From assembly GCA_040220235.1 (NCBI GenBank), contig JAVJTO010000017.1: a stretch of DNA of 64,000 nt. One strand, written 5' to 3'. Positions 1 through 8,239 of this stretch are shown here, in pieces. Source of the DNA: Coleofasciculus sp. B1-GNL1-01. Lineage in GTDB: Bacteria; Cyanobacteriota; Cyanobacteriia; Cyanobacteriales; Coleofasciculaceae. Each line of letters opens with the position of its first letter. Position 1 is the first letter of the stretch. A program made the position numbers and the translations under genes. The notes below the pieces were generated by a model that saw only the letters and a program-made list of their open reading frames with translations, searched no databases and was not told where the DNA came from.

Positions 1-830
1 AATATTATCAACAAGCTTTAGCCATTGCCCAAGATATTGGTGACTCTTCAGGAGAAGGTAAAACGCTCAACAATATTGGGTTAGTTTACTCCAACTTGGG
101 ACAATACCCAAAGGCGTTGGAGTCTTATCAACAAGCCTTAGCCATTGCCACGGAAATTGGTAACCGGGCATTGGAAGGGACAACGCTCAATAATATTGGG
201 GGAGTTTATCGCAATCTGGGACAGTACCCAAAAGCGTTGGAGAATTATCAACAAGCCTTAGCCATTCACACGGAAATTGGTGATAAGAGAAGAGAAGGTT
301 CGACGCTCAACAGTATTGGGTTAGTTTACTCCAACTTGGGACAATACCCACAAGCGTTGGAGTACTATCAACAAGCTTTAGCCATTGCCCAAGATATTGG
401 TGACTCTTCAGGAGAAGGTAAAACGCTCAACAATATTGGGGCAGTTTACGGCTACCTGGGAGAGTACCCACAAGCGTTGGAATATTATCAACAAGCCTTA
501 GCCATTCACAAGGAAATTGGTAACAAGGGAGGAGAAGGGACAACGCTCAACAATATTGGGGAAGTTTATCGCAATCTGGGACAGTACCCACAAGCGTTGG
601 AATCTTATCAAAAAGCCTTAGCCATTGCCACGGAAATTGGTAACAAGGGAGGAGAAGGGACAACGCTCAATAATATTGGGGGAGTTTACGCCGACCTAGG
701 ACAGTACCGACAAGCGTTGGAATCTCATCAAAAAGCCTTAGCCATTGCCACGGAAATTGGTAACCGGGCAGTAGAAGGTACAACGCTCAACAATATTGGG
801 TTGATTTACAATATACAAGGTAAGTATTCC
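1..830 (+). repeat. 120-bp intragenic tandem repeats encoding TPR units
   Basis: acgctcaa.aatattggg recurs every 120 bp (about 63, 183, 303, 423, 543, 663, 783). Confidence 0.9.
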
Positions 831-2204
831 CAAGCCGAAATCACCTTATTCGCAGCTATTGAGGTTTGGGAGTCACTGCGACAACGAAACTTAAAAGATG
901 ACCAGAAAATCTCCATTTTTGAACGGCAAGCGACTACCTACCTTTGGCTGCAATATGCCTTAGTCGCACAGAATAAAATTGACAAAGCCTTAGAAATTGC
1001 CGAACGCAGTCGCGGACGTGCCTTGGTGGAGTTATTAGACTCAAAACTCTCACAAAACCCCAGCAATCAACTCAATATCAAACCCCCAACCCTTCAAGAA
1101 ATTAAGCAAATTGCCTCTGAACAAAACGCCACACTGGTTCAGTATTCCACAATAGGGTATGAAGCTATCTACATCTGGGTTATCAAACCCACCGGAGAAA
1201 TTGCCTTTAAACAAGTAGACCTCAAATCCCTGAACACATCCCTACAAGAACTTGTTACCACCAGCCGTGATAATATTGGTGTCAGAGGTCGCAGTCTCTT
1301 CGATGTAACCGTCGTCAATCCCCAACCCGAAAACTCAACCGAAAAATTACGGCAACTCCATAAACTACTCATCGCCCCCATTGCCGACTTGCTACCCAAA
1401 GACCCCAACGAGCGAGTCATCTTCATCCCGCAAGCCTCCCTCTTTCTCGTCCCCTTCCCCGCCCTGCAAGACGAGCAAGGCAACTATTTAGTCGAAAAAC
1501 ATACCATCCTCACCGCACCCGCCATCCAAGTTCTCGACTTAACCCGCAAGCAGAAGCCAAACACTCAAAACTCAACCGGAGATGTGCTAGTCGTCGGCAA
1601 TCCTACCATGCCCAAAATCCAATTTGGGGAATTAGTTGCCAACTTAACTCCTCTCCCTGGTGCAGAACGAGAAGCCAATCAAATTGCCGACTTCTTCAAC
1701 ACCGAAGCCCTGATAGGTAGCCAAGCCACCAAAGCAGCAGTGATGGAGAAAATGCAGCAGGCACGCATCATTCATCTAGCCACCCACGGCTTACTCCATG
1801 ATTTTAAAGGCTTTGGCGTACCAGGAGCGATCGCCCTTGCCCCTTCCGGTAAACCTGATGATGTAGTTGATGGTTTACTCACCGCCGGGGAAATCTTCGA
1901 CATGAAACTCTCTGCTGATTTAGTCGTCCTCAGCGCTTGCGACACCGGGCGCGGCGACATAAAAGGAGATGGTGTCATTGGCTTATCTCGCTCGTTAATA
2001 TCTGCCGGAGTTCCCAGCATTTTAGTCTCCCTCTGGGCAGTTAACGATGATTCTACCGCCTTTTTAATGACAGAATTTTACCGCAATTTACAACAAAATC
2101 CTGACAAAGCCGTTGCCCTACGTCAGGCAATGCTGACAACAATGAAACAATATCCTAATCCTAAACAATGGGCAGCATTTACCCTCATCGGTGAGGCTGA
2201 GTAA
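1..2204 (+). CDS. TPR-repeat / CHAT (caspase-HetF-like) domain protein, 5' truncated by the window edge
   Basis: The frame is open from position 3. It has 40-aa TPR repeats (YQQALAI...EGTTLNNIG) followed by CHAT motifs IIHLATHG and LVVLSACDTG and the C-terminal WAAFTLIG. Confidence 0.95.
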   Translation, partial: YYQQALAIAQDIGDSSGEGKTLNNIGLVYSNLGQYPKALESYQQALAIATEIGNRALEGTTLNNIGGVYRNLGQYPKALENYQQALAIHTEIGDKRREGSTLNSIGLVYSNLGQYPQALEYYQQALAIAQDIGDSSGEGKTLNNIGAVYGYLGEYPQALEYYQQALAIHKEIGNKGGEGTTLNNIGEVYRNLGQYPQALESYQKALAIATEIGNKGGEGTTLNNIGGVYADLGQYRQALESHQKALAIATEIGNRAVEGTTLNNIGLIYNIQGKYSQAEITLFAAIEVWESLRQRNLKDDQKISIFERQATTYLWLQYALVAQNKIDKALEIAERSRGRALVELLDSKLSQNPSNQLNIKPPTLQEIKQIASEQNATLVQYSTIGYEAIYIWVIKPTGEIAFKQVDLKSLNTSLQELVTTSRDNIGVRGRSLFDVTVVNPQPENSTEKLRQLHKLLIAPIADLLPKDPNERVIFIPQASLFLVPFPALQDEQGNYLVEKHTILTAPAIQVLDLTRKQKPNTQNSTGDVLVVGNPTMPKIQFGELVANLTPLPGAEREANQIADFFNTEALIGSQATKAAVMEKMQQARIIHLATHGLLHDFKGFGVPGAIALAPSGKPDDVVDGLLTAGEIFDMKLSADLVVLSACDTGRGDIKGDGVIGLSRSLISAGVPSILVSLWAVNDDSTAFLMTEFYRNLQQNPDKAVALRQAMLTTMKQYPNPKQWAAFTLIGEAE

Positions 2205-2254
2205 TCAGCACAGAAGCGAACCCTTGGAACGAAACTCAACCCCATCGTTAGCCT

Positions 2255-2318
2255 GTTGGGTAACGCTTACGCTCTACCCAACCTACAAGAGCATTTTGGT
2301 AAAACTGACATGCTCCCG
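2255..2318. repeat. REP-like palindrome plus MITE end remnant
   Basis: gttgggtaacgcttacgctctacccaacctac is an imperfect hairpin ending in CTAC, followed by aaactgacatgctccc. Confidence 0.55.
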
Positions 2319-2374
2319 ATAGACAGTGCGATCGCGTGTGGATTAGAACTTGGAAAAGAAAACCTGTTTTCTTA

Positions 2375-2383
2375 TGTTATAAT
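2375..2383 (+). promoter_or_regulatory. Extended -10 promoter (TGnTATAAT)
   Basis: tgttataat is a perfect match, about 6 nt upstream of the structured element. Confidence 0.6.
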
Positions 2384-2389
2384 TTTATT

Positions 2390-2714
2390 CGGTCGTTGTA
2401 CCCACCTAGCTGACTAAGAGGCCACCCTTTGGGTATAAAGTATGTACTCGGCAGAGACTAGGGAATCAGAAAAGCCGCTGGATCTAAAGATGTCCATGCT
2501 GCTCTGCCCGTAAAATCGGAAAACCTTACAAGCTATCTAAGAATTTCTGCCTTGGGAATCAGGGCAGCTGCGTGGGTTCTCCCATTGAGGAGATAAAGGT
2601 TAGGTGACTAACCAGAAACGCTGAGTAAGACCAATATACTTTCGGGTATGGCGGCATCGGCGAATGAGACACGAAGCTTACATCATAATCTTCGATTTGA
2701 TGTAGGTAGTTCAC
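2390..2714 (+). ncRNA. Candidate structured ncRNA; IS200/IS605 TnpB omega-RNA-like element with no tnpB ORF
   Basis: Multiple stems, including GNRA and UUCG loops. The 3' end gaagc-ttacatca..tgatgtag-gtagttcac resembles cyanobacterial IS605/IS1341 right ends. No ORF of 60 aa or more. Confidence 0.6.
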
Positions 2715-2762
2715 ACTGTAATAGTAGAGCGATCGCTACTCTAGCCCTGAAACTATCTCCCC

Positions 2763-3485
2763 ATGACTTCCACCGTTCCCTCACCCAACTCCACTCTCCC
2801 CAACCATACCCAACTCCCCGAATCTGATGGTTCTTTTGTGAAGAATTTCCAAGAACATCCCCAAAGTATCCTATTAACGGATTCTATAGAACCTATTCTC
2901 CAAGAACGTCATCCTAACGGGCGTTATTGTATTGGTCAAGATTGCGGGATTTATTGGCGGATGACAGAACCCCCCGAACGCGGTGCAGAAGCACCCGATT
3001 GGTTCTATGTCCCGAATGTTTCGCCAACCCTCAATGGTCAAGTACGGCGTTCCTACGTCCTTTGGCAAGAGTTAATTCCTCCATTTATTGTCTTAGAATT
3101 TGCATCAGGGAACGGCGCAGAGGAAAGAGATAGAACCCCTTTATTTCCAGAAGAAGGCGGAATGCAAAAGCCAGGTAAATTCTGGATTTACGAACAAGTG
3201 ATTCGTCCAGCATTTTACGGCATTTATGAAGTCAGCCGTGCCAGTATTGAAGTCTATCACTTGATCGAAGGTCAGTATCAGGTCATTCCAGCCAACGAAC
3301 GAGGTCATTACGCGATCGCACCTTTAGGACTAGAATTGGGAATTTGGCAGGGACAGTATCAGAATATCGAATTACCGTGGCTGCGCTGGTGGGATGACCA
3401 AGGCAATCTTCTGTTAACAGGTCGTGAACGATCAGAACGGTTAGCTGCACAGTTACGAGCTGCGGGGATTGAACCTGAAGTTTAG
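2763..3485 (+). CDS. Uma2 family (DUF820) PD-(D/E)xK endonuclease-like protein
   Basis: LPESDG..VKNFQEHPQS, APDWFYVP, VLEFASG and WLRWWD..GNLL motifs. Confidence 0.9.
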   Translation: MTSTVPSPNSTLPNHTQLPESDGSFVKNFQEHPQSILLTDSIEPILQERHPNGRYCIGQDCGIYWRMTEPPERGAEAPDWFYVPNVSPTLNGQVRRSYVLWQELIPPFIVLEFASGNGAEERDRTPLFPEEGGMQKPGKFWIYEQVIRPAFYGIYEVSRASIEVYHLIEGQYQVIPANERGHYAIAPLGLELGIWQGQYQNIELPWLRWWDDQGNLLLTGRERSERLAAQLRAAGIEPEV

Positions 3486-3531
3486 GAAATCGCCCAGACT
3501 CCAAGATATGCGATCGCACAGAGAAAAGAGT

Positions 3532-3891
3532 TCAAAAATTTCCATAGAAGTTTTGGATAAAAGACTCCAACAATTCTTTCACCTCAACCACACCACTGAC
3601 CAAACGATCATAGTCCGTAGCACTCAGCAATTCCAACTCATAACACAGCAGCAGATAATACTCCACCTCAATCGCCGAATCCCTCGCCAGCCGCAGGAAG
3701 CTGAGTCTGTCTTCCGCCTCCTCGCGATCGCACCCCTGAGCAATTTTAATCGGAATCGCTGCACAAGCCAGACGAATCTGTTGAGTTAACCCCAGTAATT
3801 CCTCTTCCGGAAACCCTCTAGTCACCTGATAAACCTCAACGGTTAACTCGTGGGCTTTATTCCATTCTTTCAACTTACGAAAATCCGTCAT
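3532..3891 (-). CDS. Four-helix bundle protein (23S rRNA IVS / S23-like family)
   Basis: DFRKLKEW.KAH.L..EVY.VT.GFPEEE..GLT.QIR pattern. Confidence 0.85.
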   Translation of the reverse strand: MTDFRKLKEWNKAHELTVEVYQVTRGFPEEELLGLTQQIRLACAAIPIKIAQGCDREEAEDRLSFLRLARDSAIEVEYYLLLCYELELLSATDYDRLVSGVVEVKELLESFIQNFYGNF

Positions 3892-3978
3892 CCTTCAAAT
3901 TCTCCTTTGCTCATCAATTGGCTAAATTGTTCATCATTCATAGCGAAAAAAACCATGAACAATGAACAATCAACCCGT

Positions 3979-6225
3979 TTACGGCACTTGTAACCCCACC
4001 AATTTATCCTCTGGGATATAACTGCGGAACATGCCATTATCCGCAGAAACCATTACCAACTGCAGCAGATAATCCGGTTCCACCTGCAAATCTGCCCAGG
4101 GAACAGCCACTTCTAAACACTGCTTCAGCGCAACTTGGGCGCGACTTTTGCGGGGATGCCAGTGATAGTATTCTCCGGCTTCTTCTAACCACGTCGAACC
4201 CGTTAACAAATTAATCCCTAAATGGTGGTGAAATAAATAGTTTACCGGGGCAGTATCAGGAACCTCAGCTAAAGGGGCTGGACTATTGTGAACCGTGCGA
4301 TTCGGATAAAACCATAATAAATGCAATTCCGGGGGAATATCCTGACCAATTTGAATCCCGGCTTGAAAATCCAATCGCAGGTAAAAATTCAGGTGATCCA
4401 AACCATACCATAACCGCTGAATCACACTACTGCGGTGCATCGTTCCCCGTGCGCCACCTACTTCGATCCGACCCGCTTTATCCCAATCTTGCTCATCGCC
4501 AAAGCCATCAATCACTGGATGAATAAAACTCAGAGGTCGGTGATCGCCTTTCGATTCGTAGGTGTCTAGAGGTTGCTTGAGACTGGCAGGAATTGGTTCA
4601 TTTAATGCCTGATAAATCCCAGTCAAATGTTCCCGGAATAACTGGTCAAAAATAGCATCTTGGTTGGATGAATGACCCTCACCAAACCACCAAAACCAAT
4701 CTGAACCTTCCGCCGCATATAAGGCTTCCCAGACTTCCGGATTGTTGTCTGGTGTGGCTTCAGGATGATTGGCTAAGGTTTGCCGCGCTTGGGTGAGTAA
4801 ATCCCATGCCCGATTCTTCACGGGGTCACCAATCCAAGTGCTAAAACTACCATCCACCCATGATCCACTATGCAGTCGATCGGCTGGAAGTGTAGCATTA
4901 GGAGGAAACTGATCCAGAAATTCCGACACCGTAACCAATTTTATCTGCGGATGCGCCGAGAGTTTTTCATACAGTGAGGTAAGGAAAGGAATCCCGTCTT
5001 TTTGGTAAAATTCCCAGCAATTCTCTCCATCCAAGGCAATGGTTACTAGCCACGGTTGATCTAATCCAGTCCCTCCCTCTTGCTGTAGGCGTTTAATCGA
5101 ACGGGAAATCGCTTCTAAGTGGCTGACAAAATCCGTTGACGCCTGCTTGGGTTCCATTGATCCGTAGGAAAAGCCAATTAAATCCGATAAGCGGTGATCC
5201 CGAAACACAATTGCCAAATTCCCCTGGGGTGTCTCTAAGCGATAGGGGCGATAGAGTAACGTGGGTTCCATCAGGGTTCCGGTTTCATCCCGGTGGAAAA
5301 AGTGCTGCACTGTCCACCCCAATACCGCCTCATCGGAACAAATCCACTTAAATCCTGCCTCGGCGATATAGGGTAGAATGGCTGGACTCACCGACTGTTC
5401 TGAGGGCCACAAGCCGCGTGGTGTGCGTCCAAATCGTTCTTCATACATCTGCCACGCTTTTTGCAGGTGACGGGGAATATCTTCTTCCCACCGAAAACGC
5501 TGTAGGGGTAAAGTCATATCCGGAATCGCCACCCGTCCGGAATCGGTATTTGCCAGTAAGGGTAAAATCGGGTGAGTATAGGGCGTTGTTGTCACCTCCA
5601 ACTGACCCGCCTCTTGCATCTGGCGATGTTGAGGGATGATGCGCTTAAGGATATCTCGTTGTTTAGAATAAATCCGCTGGCGATCGCTTAATGTAAAGTT
5701 TCGTCCTTTTTCCAACCAAGCGGCAATTTCTGGGTCATCCCAAAATATTGGGTCAATCCACGCCAAGTTATGCCATGCCAGTAAATCGCTGAAATCCTGA
5801 TGCGTCCAATGATCTGCACACCAAGTTTTCCCTTTTTCTTGCCGCATCTCGTATAGTTCGGCATATCGAGGATGGGGGTCAATCAGGGTGCGGTGATTGG
5901 CATCAAAAAAATGCTCAACGATAAACTGTCGTTGATCCAGCTTGAGTTGGTCGGTTGGCGTCAGGGTCAACTCCAGATAGGGGTCAAAGGCTGTCCCCGC
6001 CATGTAATCTTCCAACTGCAAAATCAGCGACGGCACCAAGTTGACCGTTTGGTGTAACTTAGGATAGCGCTCTAACAATAGCACTAAATCCAAATAATCT
6101 TTCGTCCCATGCAGCCGCGCCCAAGGGAGGCGATACCGTCCATTTGAGCCGGACACGCTGTTGCGACTTTTATAGAGAGGTTGATGCTGATGCCAGATAA
6201 AGGCGACGTATAACGGATGACTCAT
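3979..6225 (-). CDS. Glycoside hydrolase family 57 (amylopullulanase/branching-type)
   Basis: WHQHQP, HPILPL, GLWPSEQ, LDGENCWE and AEGSDWFWW motifs. Confidence 0.95.
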   Translation of the reverse strand: MSHPLYVAFIWHQHQPLYKSRNSVSGSNGRYRLPWARLHGTKDYLDLVLLLERYPKLHQTVNLVPSLILQLEDYMAGTAFDPYLELTLTPTDQLKLDQRQFIVEHFFDANHRTLIDPHPRYAELYEMRQEKGKTWCADHWTHQDFSDLLAWHNLAWIDPIFWDDPEIAAWLEKGRNFTLSDRQRIYSKQRDILKRIIPQHRQMQEAGQLEVTTTPYTHPILPLLANTDSGRVAIPDMTLPLQRFRWEEDIPRHLQKAWQMYEERFGRTPRGLWPSEQSVSPAILPYIAEAGFKWICSDEAVLGWTVQHFFHRDETGTLMEPTLLYRPYRLETPQGNLAIVFRDHRLSDLIGFSYGSMEPKQASTDFVSHLEAISRSIKRLQQEGGTGLDQPWLVTIALDGENCWEFYQKDGIPFLTSLYEKLSAHPQIKLVTVSEFLDQFPPNATLPADRLHSGSWVDGSFSTWIGDPVKNRAWDLLTQARQTLANHPEATPDNNPEVWEALYAAEGSDWFWWFGEGHSSNQDAIFDQLFREHLTGIYQALNEPIPASLKQPLDTYESKGDHRPLSFIHPVIDGFGDEQDWDKAGRIEVGGARGTMHRSSVIQRLWYGLDHLNFYLRLDFQAGIQIGQDIPPELHLLWFYPNRTVHNSPAPLAEVPDTAPVNYLFHHHLGINLLTGSTWLEEAGEYYHWHPRKSRAQVALKQCLEVAVPWADLQVEPDYLLQLVMVSADNGMFRSYIPEDKLVGLQVP

Positions 6226-6327
6226 CGTTAATAGTAAACGTTAAGGGTCTAGAGTTTAGGTGTGAAGAGGGGGTTCTCTCACTTTATAACTCTTAACCCT
6301 TAACGCCAAACTAAAAACGCAGAATAA

Positions 6328-6582
6328 TTACATGACTTGTTCAACTTCCACGATTTCCGGGATAAATTCCCGTAAGCGGCGTTCAATACCCATTTTCAGG
6401 GTCATGGCAGAACTGGGACAAGACCCACAAGCACCTTGTAGCCGCAGTTTTACAATCGGACCGTCGATTTCAACTAAATCAACGTTACCGCCATCAGCCA
6501 TCAGGTAAGGACGCAATTCATCGAGGACAGCTTCGACATTTTCCGAGGTTAATGCTAAGGGGGGAGATAGTGTTTGAGCCAT
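6328..6582 (-). CDS. nfuA: NifU-like (Nfu) Fe-S cluster scaffold
   Basis: [12 protein letters not shown] and [11 protein letters not shown] (CxxC). Confidence 0.9.
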
Positions 6583-6821
6583 AATTCACCGAGTTTGACA
6601 GCACAACTACGTCAATCCTAGCGTTCTTTGAGCATTTTGAATGGTTGTCATCCTATAGCCCAAGGCAGAAGGCAAAAGAGTCCTTACTGGTACCTTCTCG
6701 TTTCAGCCGTCAAGAACGTTCTCACCTGTATGGCGACAGGTATACCTTGAACTTGAATAAAATTTGGTGTATGAACCAATAGTTTGTTGGACTTATCGGG
6801 ATTGTCAGGATTATCGGGGTT

Positions 6822-7114
6822 GTAGGGGCGAGTCGCTGCATATCGTAGGTGGTGTGAGAATTAATCTATCTCGACTCGCCCTTTTCTAAAGGTACGCGGT
6901 GTCCGATAATTCCTGATCAGCCGTCATGCATTTAAATTGGGTATTAGTAGCGAGCAAGATGCAAAGCCTGCGGCATGGCTTCGCTAAACGCACTACAAGG
7001 ATTTCGTCATTATTGACATTAAGGTTTAAATGCCGAACAGTTTACCTGATGCAGGGCGACCCGATAAAATTAAGGGTTGGGCGATATTAATTGTATGCGG
7101 CGGGTCGCCCCTAC
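6822..7114. mobile_element. Composite REP-doublet element (inverted copy at 55555-55811) with a nested MITE
   Basis: gtaggggcgagtcg...cgactcgccc and gggcgacccg...cgggtcgcccctac match the reverse complement of 55555-55811. Confidence 0.8.
6917..7044 (+). mobile_element. MITE family A copy carrying a 27-bp insert
   Basis: gtcatgcatttaaattggg...tttaaatgccgaacag, shared with the copies at 12685, 38756, 45886 and 60814. Confidence 0.85.
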
Positions 7115-7214
7115 AATATATCCTGTAACTACCTCTGACCCAAAAAACAGCAAAATCTAACACTTCCTGTCGGCGTTCCTCAGACAAGCGATTCACGATC
7201 GCTTTCCATTTCAT
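7115..7214 (-). pseudogene. Probable truncated DUF2281-like small protein
   Basis: LSEERRQEVLDFAVF resembles the DUF2281 N-terminus, and the frame then runs into repeat DNA. Confidence 0.45.
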
Positions 7215-8239
7215 CTCACACTCAGGGACGAGTTAGGTACTTTCGCCAAGGCTTCCCGCATTACTTCAGAACCTACACCCGGAATACAAGATTTTTCGGT
7301 TAAATGTCGCTTCCAAGCACGACTTCCAGGTTGTCCAGAAAATAATTGCAGGATATGGCGGGTAATTTTATTCAACTTCAATCCTTTTGCCACCCAATGA
7401 TCAATATAATCCAACATCCCTTCCACAACCTGATGGCGAGTTGGCGCTATACCTTCCTGACCAAATATCTGACAATCAGCTTGAGCAAATAGATAAGGAT
7501 TATCGTAGGCGGCGCGTCCAATCATTACCGCATCGACAAATTTTAACTGTTCCTGTACCTGTTCTAAACTCGTAAATCCGCCGTTAATCTCAATAAATAA
7601 CTGGGGAAATTCTTGTTTTAGGCGATGCACATCACTATACCGTAAAGGCGGAACTGTGCGATTTTCCTTGGGACTTAATCCCTGTAACCACGCCTTCCGC
7701 GCATGGACACTAAAGTGTTGACATCCGGCTTCTGAGACAATACGGACAAAGTTTGCCATGTCCTCATAGCGATCGCACTCATCTATGCCAATCCGATGCT
7801 TGACGGTAACTGGTATTGTAACCGCCTGAATCATCGCTTCCACCCCCCGCGCCACCCGTTCCGGTTGCGCCATCAGACAAGCACCAAAGTTCCCATTTTG
7901 CACGCGATCGCTCGGACATCCTACGTTAAGATTAATCTGGTCATACCCCATCCCTTCAGCAATTCGGGCGCATTCGGCAAGTTCTAGGGGATTATCTCCC
8001 CCCACTTGCAGCACTAAGGGTTTCTCTTCGGGGGAAAAACCCAACAGGCGATCGCGATCGCCATGTATAATTGCTGCACTGGTTACCATCTCGGTATAGA
8101 GGAGAGTGCAGCGGGTAATCTGGCGCATAAAATACCGAAAATGGCGATCCGTGCGATCCATCATCGGTGCAATACTTAACGGATAAGTTACCGGGATGGT
8201 GTGAGGTTGAGGTAGAACGACGGTATTGGAACTGACCAT
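7211..8239 (-). CDS. dusA: tRNA-dihydrouridine(20/20a) synthase
   Basis: SIAPMMDRTDRHFR, NLNVGCPSDRVQNG.FGACLM and HARKAWLQGLSPKENR. Confidence 0.95.
   Translation of the reverse strand: MVSSNTVVLPQPHTIPVTYPLSIAPMMDRTDRHFRYFMRQITRCTLLYTEMVTSAAIIHGDRDRLLGFSPEEKPLVLQVGGDNPLELAECARIAEGMGYDQINLNVGCPSDRVQNGNFGACLMAQPERVARGVEAMIQAVTIPVTVKHRIGIDECDRYEDMANFVRIVSEAGCQHFSVHARKAWLQGLSPKENRTVPPLRYSDVHRLKQEFPQLFIEINGGFTSLEQVQEQLKFVDAVMIGRAAYDNPYLFAQADCQIFGQEGIAPTRHQVVEGMLDYIDHWVAKGLKLNKITRHILQLFSGQPGSRAWKRHLTEKSCIPGVGSEVMREALAKVPNSSLSVR

Follow-up and report, generated by a model that had tools for sequence, protein, structure and literature searches.

Positions 2391 to 2714 of the window, the 64,000-nucleotide stretch of Coleofasciculus sp. 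B1-GNL1-01 DNA analyzed here, are one member of a cyanobacterial IS200/IS605 family whose elements carry no genes. Our preferred reading, which we hold to be likely, is that this copy is a left-truncated element, inserted 3' of a TTAA, that makes a TnpB guide RNA of ~340 nt targeting its own empty site. The family is mobile and scarless and has IS200/IS605 ends, no tnpB was found in cis in the loci examined, and its omegaRNA fold covaries. Its neighbors are a TPR-CHAT gene, whose end is at 2204, and a Uma2-family gene, which starts at 2763; the ORFs touching the region are all short (51 to 59 aa), with no transposase or nuclease ORF among them. Folding of 2389-2735 gave a stability z score of -2.5 (2 of 100 shuffles were equally stable), and Rfam scans returned no match at E ≤ 1 in window positions 1 to 8000 and nothing relevant in 20 family loci. 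A first-pass annotation, made from the sequence alone, had proposed an orphan TnpB-type omegaRNA gene with its own promoter and a structured 5' extension. All of its coordinates were correct, and every inverted repeat it listed is present where stated; of its interpretation, the omegaRNA scaffold, the boundary, the promoter-like site, the extension, and the non-autonomy held up, but domestication or a TldR-like role did not. Read directly, TGTTATAAT occupies 2375-2383 and GTAGTTCAC terminates at 2714, while 2537-2572 translates as LRISALGIRAAA; this peptide, which the annotation had likened to cyanobacterial TnpB C-terminal tails, resembles a genuine local TnpB tail, IRILSVLGTRTAA. Outside the element, at 2226-2290, lies a REP-like palindromic repeat that recurs in partial form dozens of times across the genome.

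Table 1. Features of the element copy and its flanks, in window coordinates
Feature	Position	Strand	Basis
Leader remnant; deletion of the left-end hairpin plus 334 bp of host sequence (last bases TTAA)	2362..2374	+	sister-genome comparison
Extended -10 promoter-like site, TGnTATAAT	2375..2383	+	sequence, positional conservation in 55 homologues; predicted
5' domain D1	2391..2466	+	terminal mini-hairpin 2391-2402, covarying helix 2405-2409/2460-2464, inner helices
5' domain D2	2467..2543	+	exchangeable module, several family variants
OmegaRNA stem 1, loop GGAAU, GCUGC strand	2547..2571 (stem 2547-2567)	+	core alignment, ISDra2 comparison
Pseudoknot	2556-2559 with 2709-2712 (positions -6 to -3)	+	covariation, same pairing as ISDra2
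Stem 2	2571-2574 with 2670-2673	+	93.5% paired, changes on both sides
Optional two-hairpin insertion	2578..2613 (2578-2593, 2598-2613)	+	alignment of 31 copies
Stems 3a (2619-2626 with 2654-2662) and 3b (2636-2649)	2619..2662	+	core alignment
Right-end hairpin (stem 4, 2676-2707) and terminal TCAC; element end 2714	2676..2714	+	
Host flank and predicted guide	2715..2734	+	19/20 identical to G003:C38 after TTAA

All elements of the ISDra2 omegaRNA are retained in the 3' 170 nt, including the covarying pseudoknot (Table 1); this TnpB-type scaffold, stems 1 to 4 and a pseudoknot ahead of the guide, is maintained under covariation. Across 31 sequences of this 3' core, 97% of the structure was paired, 21 of 37 pairs changed on both sides, and 0 of 500 shuffles reached the same, in a test that is inflated by related sequences and that used a hand-set structure partly taken from the same alignment; none of the slid controls came close. 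Stem 2 was fully paired in 79 of 83 distinct copies. The pseudoknot strands in the window are GGAAU and GUUC, and the outer pair among 29 sequences was G-C in 18, C-G in 9, and U-G in 2; an unbiased column scan flagged the same contact of the stem-1 loop with position -6 as a long-range pair. The GCUGC strand after stem 1 we infer, by analogy to ISDra2, to be the triple-helix strand. The two-hairpin insertion is missing from tnpB-linked omegaRNAs and from 8 of the 31 aligned copies. G-U pairs favor the plus strand as the RNA; together with the lack of an RF02033 match in the region, which lies outside the 19 RF02033 places of the genome, this led us to reject a HEARO/IscB omegaRNA. An IStron was also rejected, as no Intron_gpI match lies within any element and the single match found is downstream of one. 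At the 3' end of the scaffold, the expected TCAC boundary with variable flanks was seen as a sharp 3' edge followed by 102 distinct 16-mers in 108.

BLAST searches gave hits in 43 of 151 related genomes, many of these hits restricted to the terminal hairpin; the nearest full-length relative found was 78% identical, and no donor copy was seen. A profile search of the genome itself gave 14 places, three of them at contig ends, none with tnpB overlapping or directly upstream. A pattern scan of GTDB genomes gave 118 of about 160 loci, 116 of which are titled cyanobacteria; none of these outside loci has tnpB in cis, 38 of the 118 having only ~300 nt of flank. ORFs matching a TnpB profile occur near six of them, all either at least 670 nt downstream or 1.9 kb upstream. 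A model of the core, R2, had matches in 93 of 150 genomes from the order, true tnpB ends included: 21 readable top loci were gene-less, and 10 of 20 shorter, weaker ones were tnpB 3' ends. One genome held three equally scoring copies. A plasmid collection gave no match for two copies, and viral contigs gave no match to the pattern. It had been suggested that tnpA and tnpB were lost here and the RNA kept. There is indeed no tnpB in cis, but the window copy is not the remnant of a tnpB gene that decayed locally, because the whole family is gene-less; the alternative suggestion of a non-autonomous element describes it better, as a member of a gene-less, mobile family with IS200/IS605 ends. Individual loci showed further rearrangements: one member (L031:2555-2982, in G032:C68) is split by a ~430-bp remnant of another IS200/IS605 element, L314 (G440:C162) has a second partial core directly after the element, L293 has an inverted duplication at the right end, possibly an assembly artifact, and the gene-less copy at G000:C59:53500-53940 has an internal deletion. 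The sequence directly ahead of this last copy is presumably ssrA-like.

The history of the insertion can be read from a sister genome, G003, whose contig C38 is 98% identical to window positions 1700-2361 and 2715-3300 and lacks the element. Between the two matches, this contig carries 334 bases of unrelated host sequence, the last four being TTAA, and then at once the post-2714 sequence, which is identical to the window at 19 of 20 and at 57 of 60 positions. The left part of another genome, G002, is as in G003, matching the window to 2361 and then differing, and in contigs from four public runs the match breaks off at 2356 and picks up again at 2715, one of them with the G003-type continuation. 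Because the sister genome holds a TTAA-flanked empty site, we read the window copy, from these sequence comparisons, as a young insertion 3' of TTAA from which a later deletion removed the left end and 334 bp of host DNA. An A/T leader similar to the remnant at 2362 follows the left-end hairpin in L003, L007, L041, and L042. Other copies in the genome have contiguous empty alleles with TTAA on the left: the 503-bp copy on C16 in three of five genomes and the 518-bp copy on C69 in one of five. TTAA is thus present at three empty sites, two of which are scarless with no target duplication. A left-end-like motif was found in 35 of 72 loci with enough flank, 31 of these 35 after TTAA, compared with 3 of 70 background windows; a loose left-end regular expression run on the genome itself gave 99 hits, mostly noise. 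The left-end palindrome is missing from the window copy, which is a truncated member of a family that qualifies as PATE. The left-end hairpin of the gene-less copies and of the C6/C96 tnpB elements recurs in IscB-type elements at G000:C6:59698, C170:154-225, and C87:153-224, whose ORF points towards this shared left end. The distal part of the guide (2727-2734) contains a GCGATCGC palindrome, which we take to be HIP1, and the deleted host stretch (L170, G003:C38) begins 2 nt before another; given the frequency of GCGATCGC, its occurrence at both guide and left breakpoint is probably chance.

The predicted guide, the 20 nt after the element end, would aim at the TTAA-flanked empty site of the element itself, and TTAA is the predicted TAM. 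The TAM-adjacent match to 2715-2734 that the first-pass annotation called for was found at the empty site of the sister genome, after TTAA, but not in the genome itself, where the best match to the guide is 12 nt and not TTAA adjacent. The guides of 12 copies in the genome had longest exact prefixes of 11 to 15 nt elsewhere in it, with no common adjacent motif. An empty allele as guide target is what the TnpB homing model predicts, as far as that model is set out in the available part of the preprint (Meers et al., bioRxiv 10.1101/2023.03.14.532601).

Candidate partner proteins are encoded elsewhere in the genome, which contains 51 TnpB-domain places as well as Y1 transposases. The TnpBs at G000 C6:38596-39810 and C96:64141-65391 are intact, and their elements end in GTAGTTCAC; the right-end palindrome plus GTAGTTCAC is common to the window copy and C6-clade tnpB ends, and the left end of the C6 and C96 elements is common to four gene-less copies. 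Both TnpBs have D183, E270, and D352 and are close to ISDra2 TnpB, which is matched at E 2e-84. For the covariance-model search that had been recommended, model R1 was built only from 22 tnpB-overlapping omegaRNAs of the C6/C96 clade. Searched against the 64-kb window, R1 matched 2591-2714 at 41.9 bits (E 9e-8), the next match being at 11.3 bits; owing to the 40-nt insertion in the window copy, which no tnpB-linked RNA shows, the first stem of R1 was aligned to the inserted hairpin. R1 scored 20 gene-less copies at 17 to 62 bits and four tnpB ends of other clades at 11 to 20 bits. Plain sequence profiles matched the C6/C96 omegaRNA weakly (E 0.08 and 0.4). Close, stop-free homologues of the C6-clade TnpB were present in all 10 of 10 element-bearing genomes checked, a co-occurrence that proves little because the clade is common in the order. 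The C6 and C96 TnpBs are likely partners of the family RNA, which they would bind; with its own left end gone, the window copy would be linked to them by its scaffold, the TTAA, and its sister copies.

TldR guide RNAs consist of a TnpB-derived scaffold with a 3' guide, and the first-pass annotation had suggested that the window RNA might serve a TldR-like protein or be domesticated. On such a reading it would be a guide for a nuclease-dead TnpB that regulates host genes. The promoter-like site of the copy, its lost mobility, and the retention of some left-end-less copies at one site in both of two related genomes (L043/L044, L045/L046, C51/L004) are in keeping with such a role, but the insertion is young, being absent from the 98%-identical sister flanks, and the guides are unconserved flanking sequence whose best match elsewhere in the genome, for the window copy, is the 12-nt one lacking TTAA. 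Unlike the TldR case, no dead TnpB lies alongside, no guide is conserved, and the family is still mobile: both clade TnpBs have the three catalytic residues, and no nuclease-dead member of the matching clade occurs among 40 long TnpB frames. Nor does any protein recur as a neighbor in the 118 loci, except a small divergent ribbon-helix-helix (RHH)-like gene. Domestication is therefore largely refuted, and we consider it very improbable.

The claim that the RNA has its own promoter-like site was borne out: the extended -10 is present and lies at a constant distance in 55 distinct homologues, with T at 85%, A at 93%, A at 93%, and T at 91% in the -10 box and the preceding TG at 67% and 65%. From the end of the TAnnAT box to the RNA start, GGTYG..ACC, is 7 nt in 55 distinct upstream sequences and 8 nt in the window, and this start was found in 67 of 118 loci. 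A simple consensus promoter scan found no site in the window region because a -35 is absent. The RNA is predicted to start at ~2389-2391. Nine public runs are labeled as RNA, each with a small share; the four examined have contigs of up to 78 kb, which suggests that they are DNA and not informative on transcription. The empty allele and other family copies are present in these four runs, and no contig covers 2370-2604.

Two truncated copies in G009 (L009:1659 onward, on C321, and L037, on C90) keep the promoter and 5' domain and run into host genes, for which they may supply a promoter; one of the host ORFs behind them is presumably ribosomal L36-like, and the other is sugar dehydratase-like. 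In 12 of 67 long elements, the small divergent RHH-like gene starts 14 to 43 nt upstream of the RNA start. One type of it is found in L051, L053, L058, L080, L081, L084, L090, L102, L118, and L123 and another in L078 and L127; matches are to DUF6364 and, weakly, CopG/RHH_5, and in some loci a palindrome lies between the gene and the RNA start. Its product may repress transcription of the guide RNA.

It is quite possible, although we would not favor it, that the family is functional and the window copy has been inert since losing its left end, except for possible read-through into the downstream Uma2 gene. The deleted left end fits this, as does the lack of a TTAA-plus-guide target in the genome and of the copy itself in relatives and public runs. 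Against it, the promoter-like site and all scaffold helices are intact, and in so young an insertion decay is uninformative.

Ahead of the core, the ~150 nt of extra 5' structure that had been proposed is real, measuring 153 nt and covarying, but its stems differ from those drawn. The stems gtaccca/tgggtat and ggcagag/ctctgcc are present in the sequence, yet in 15 homologues they were 72% paired, and 256 of 500 shuffles did equally well. An alternative structure was 91.5% paired, and 0 of 500 shuffles were as good; in it, the helix 2405-2409/2460-2464 changes on both sides, and a mini-hairpin lies at the extreme 5' end. The same outer D1 helices occur in a second subfamily of 22, and D1 and D2 combine differently across family members. 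A D1 model, R3, found 29 places in 11 of 150 genomes, and a D1 pattern found 15 further metagenome loci. In none of 36 of the 44 D1 loci was D1 followed by tnpB, six loci ending at a contig edge and one being truncated; the locus-by-locus reading covered loci other than L252-L259 and L300-L307. D1 was also absent from 46 tnpB-bearing loci, and it was not seen as a leader of intact tnpB genes. The 5' extension was thus seen only in gene-less elements among those examined, and D1 is an uncatalogued structured RNA without an Rfam match. Resemblances to a group I intron, hammerhead, twister, and tetraloop receptor were dropped, as the look-alike letters were unconserved or fell in a covarying helix. 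Six loci (L273, L274, L277, L278, L279, and L247) represent further gene-less lineages whose cores are nearer to those linked to tnpB and whose 5' extensions differ, a GAAAACCAAG-like loop being present in several; these lineages suggest repeated independent origins.

What the extension does is a separate question. We are evenly divided on the reading that fits it best, namely that it replaces the body of the tnpB mRNA, would protect the free RNA by its folded 5' end, and would be trimmed on loading. In the published ISDra2 work, as far as its text is available, the 5' 115 nt is trimmed and dispensable (Nakagawa et al. 2023, PMC10097598). A mere protective cap, however, would not need as many specific nucleotides as D1 conserves across families. 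The extension might instead be a dedicated active module of guide-only parasites, making the RNA a two-part device that captures TnpB in trans, competes with its mRNA, processes itself, or binds a host protein; this would be compatible with the rest of our main explanation, and we consider it possible at best. In its favor, D1 starts at the predicted +1 and covaries and keeps apart from tnpB in the loci counted above; a G(U)AAA..CCA(A/U)G motif lies ahead of the core in 30 of 83 copies, compared with 25 of 1,721 background windows; and the 12-mer GUAAAUCCAAGG also occurs 3' of a gene-less IscB-type element in the same genome, a weak hint of a link between gene-less omegaRNA and IscB-type elements. 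Against it, other mobile copies have only ~55 nt or an unrelated ~200-nt 5' extension, so that no single 5' domain is required, the window variant of D2 lacks the CCAAG half of the motif, GUAAAUCCAAGG has four other places in the genome (at least two within coding sequence), and the profile match is weak (E 0.08). A GTAAATCCAAGG-type pattern searched in 52 genomes gave 20 places; of 12 inspected, two were family members and the others chance or coding matches. A bolder version, that these are old, order-wide RNA-only TnpB parasites whose D1 and D2, found nowhere else, actively let a free guide capture nuclease that would otherwise load its own mRNA, or process the 5' end of the guide as an undescribed ribozyme, and whose modules are swapped with gene-less IscB-type elements, seems to us doubtful.

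We think it unlikely that the extension descends from the coding region or leader of a tnpB gene and survives as a structured RNA fossil. In length it is near the ~170 nt of coding sequence that run from where the zinc finger begins to stem 1, and one D2 variant reads I[AV]VNP, like a TnpB zinc-finger start, but neither DNA nor translated searches gave a significant match to the 51 tnpB regions of the genome or to the 46 tnpB loci, the best position-consistent match having an E of 1.2.

In our preferred reading, then, transcription from about 2390 would give a ~340-nt RNA that loads an intact ISDra2-like TnpB from C6 or C96 in trans, with TnpA also supplied in trans. The 5' extension would stand in for the tnpB mRNA body as a folded, protected 5' end that is trimmed on loading, and the loaded TnpB would be directed to the element's own empty site. 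According to the available part of the Geobacillus study, TnpA excises elements scarlessly, after which TnpB cuts the empty joint and recombination restores the element (Meers et al., bioRxiv 10.1101/2023.03.14.532601). Because its left end is missing, the window copy should no longer excise and would at most cut incoming or sister empty alleles. Taken alone, this copy has small biological weight, being a young, immobilized insertion. The family, by comparison, offers a complete set of material for tests: gene-less copies whose ends are exactly defined, their empty alleles, TTAA as predicted TAM, two intact candidate nucleases in the same genome, and naturally occurring variants that have or lack the 5' domains and the inserted hairpins. 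For guide engineering it is also useful in revealing at which points an omegaRNA tolerates large insertions.

A literature search covering articles without their supplements found no published description of the family or its 5' domains. Standalone omegaRNAs have been described, and the original in-trans test of these reportedly concerned IscB. Like the elements studied here, they are mobilized without an effector or transposase in genomes that hold effector loci; they were reported to work in trans, their role was called unknown, and the portion of the article available gives no structure for them, unlike here (Altae-Tran et al. 2023, PMC10691335). Use of standalone omegaRNAs in trans by TnpB was argued but not demonstrated in the available portion of a study of Geobacillus stearothermophilus, whose PATE-like omegaRNA elements are likewise gene-less, share ends with other elements, and would need TnpB in trans (Meers et al., bioRxiv 10.1101/2023.03.14.532601). 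The present family differs in its own promoter-like site, its 153-nt structured extension, and its two-hairpin module, none of which is described in that portion, and the window copy differs further in having lost its left end. The ISDra2 omegaRNA has the same stems 1, 2, 3a, 3b, and 4, pseudoknot, and 3' guide, and in its pseudoknot the stem-1 loop is the partner of positions -5 to -3, while -6G pairs with a U; it overlaps tnpB and has a 231-nt scaffold and a TTGAT TAM, according to the accessible text (Nakagawa et al. 2023, PMC10097598), whereas the window RNA overlaps no gene, its scaffold measures 324 nt, its predicted TAM is TTAA, and it has extra domains. The family falls within the PATE definition drawn up for Haloquadratum walsbyi, whose PATEs also lack terminal inverted repeats, target duplication, and a transposase and have near-terminal palindromes; those are DNA elements, often bare fused ends, with no RNA gene described in the accessible part of the article (Dyall-Smith et al. 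2011, PMC3119063). Elements that lack genes and encode an omegaRNA have already been published, and the new part is the uncatalogued folded RNA domain that precedes the scaffold.
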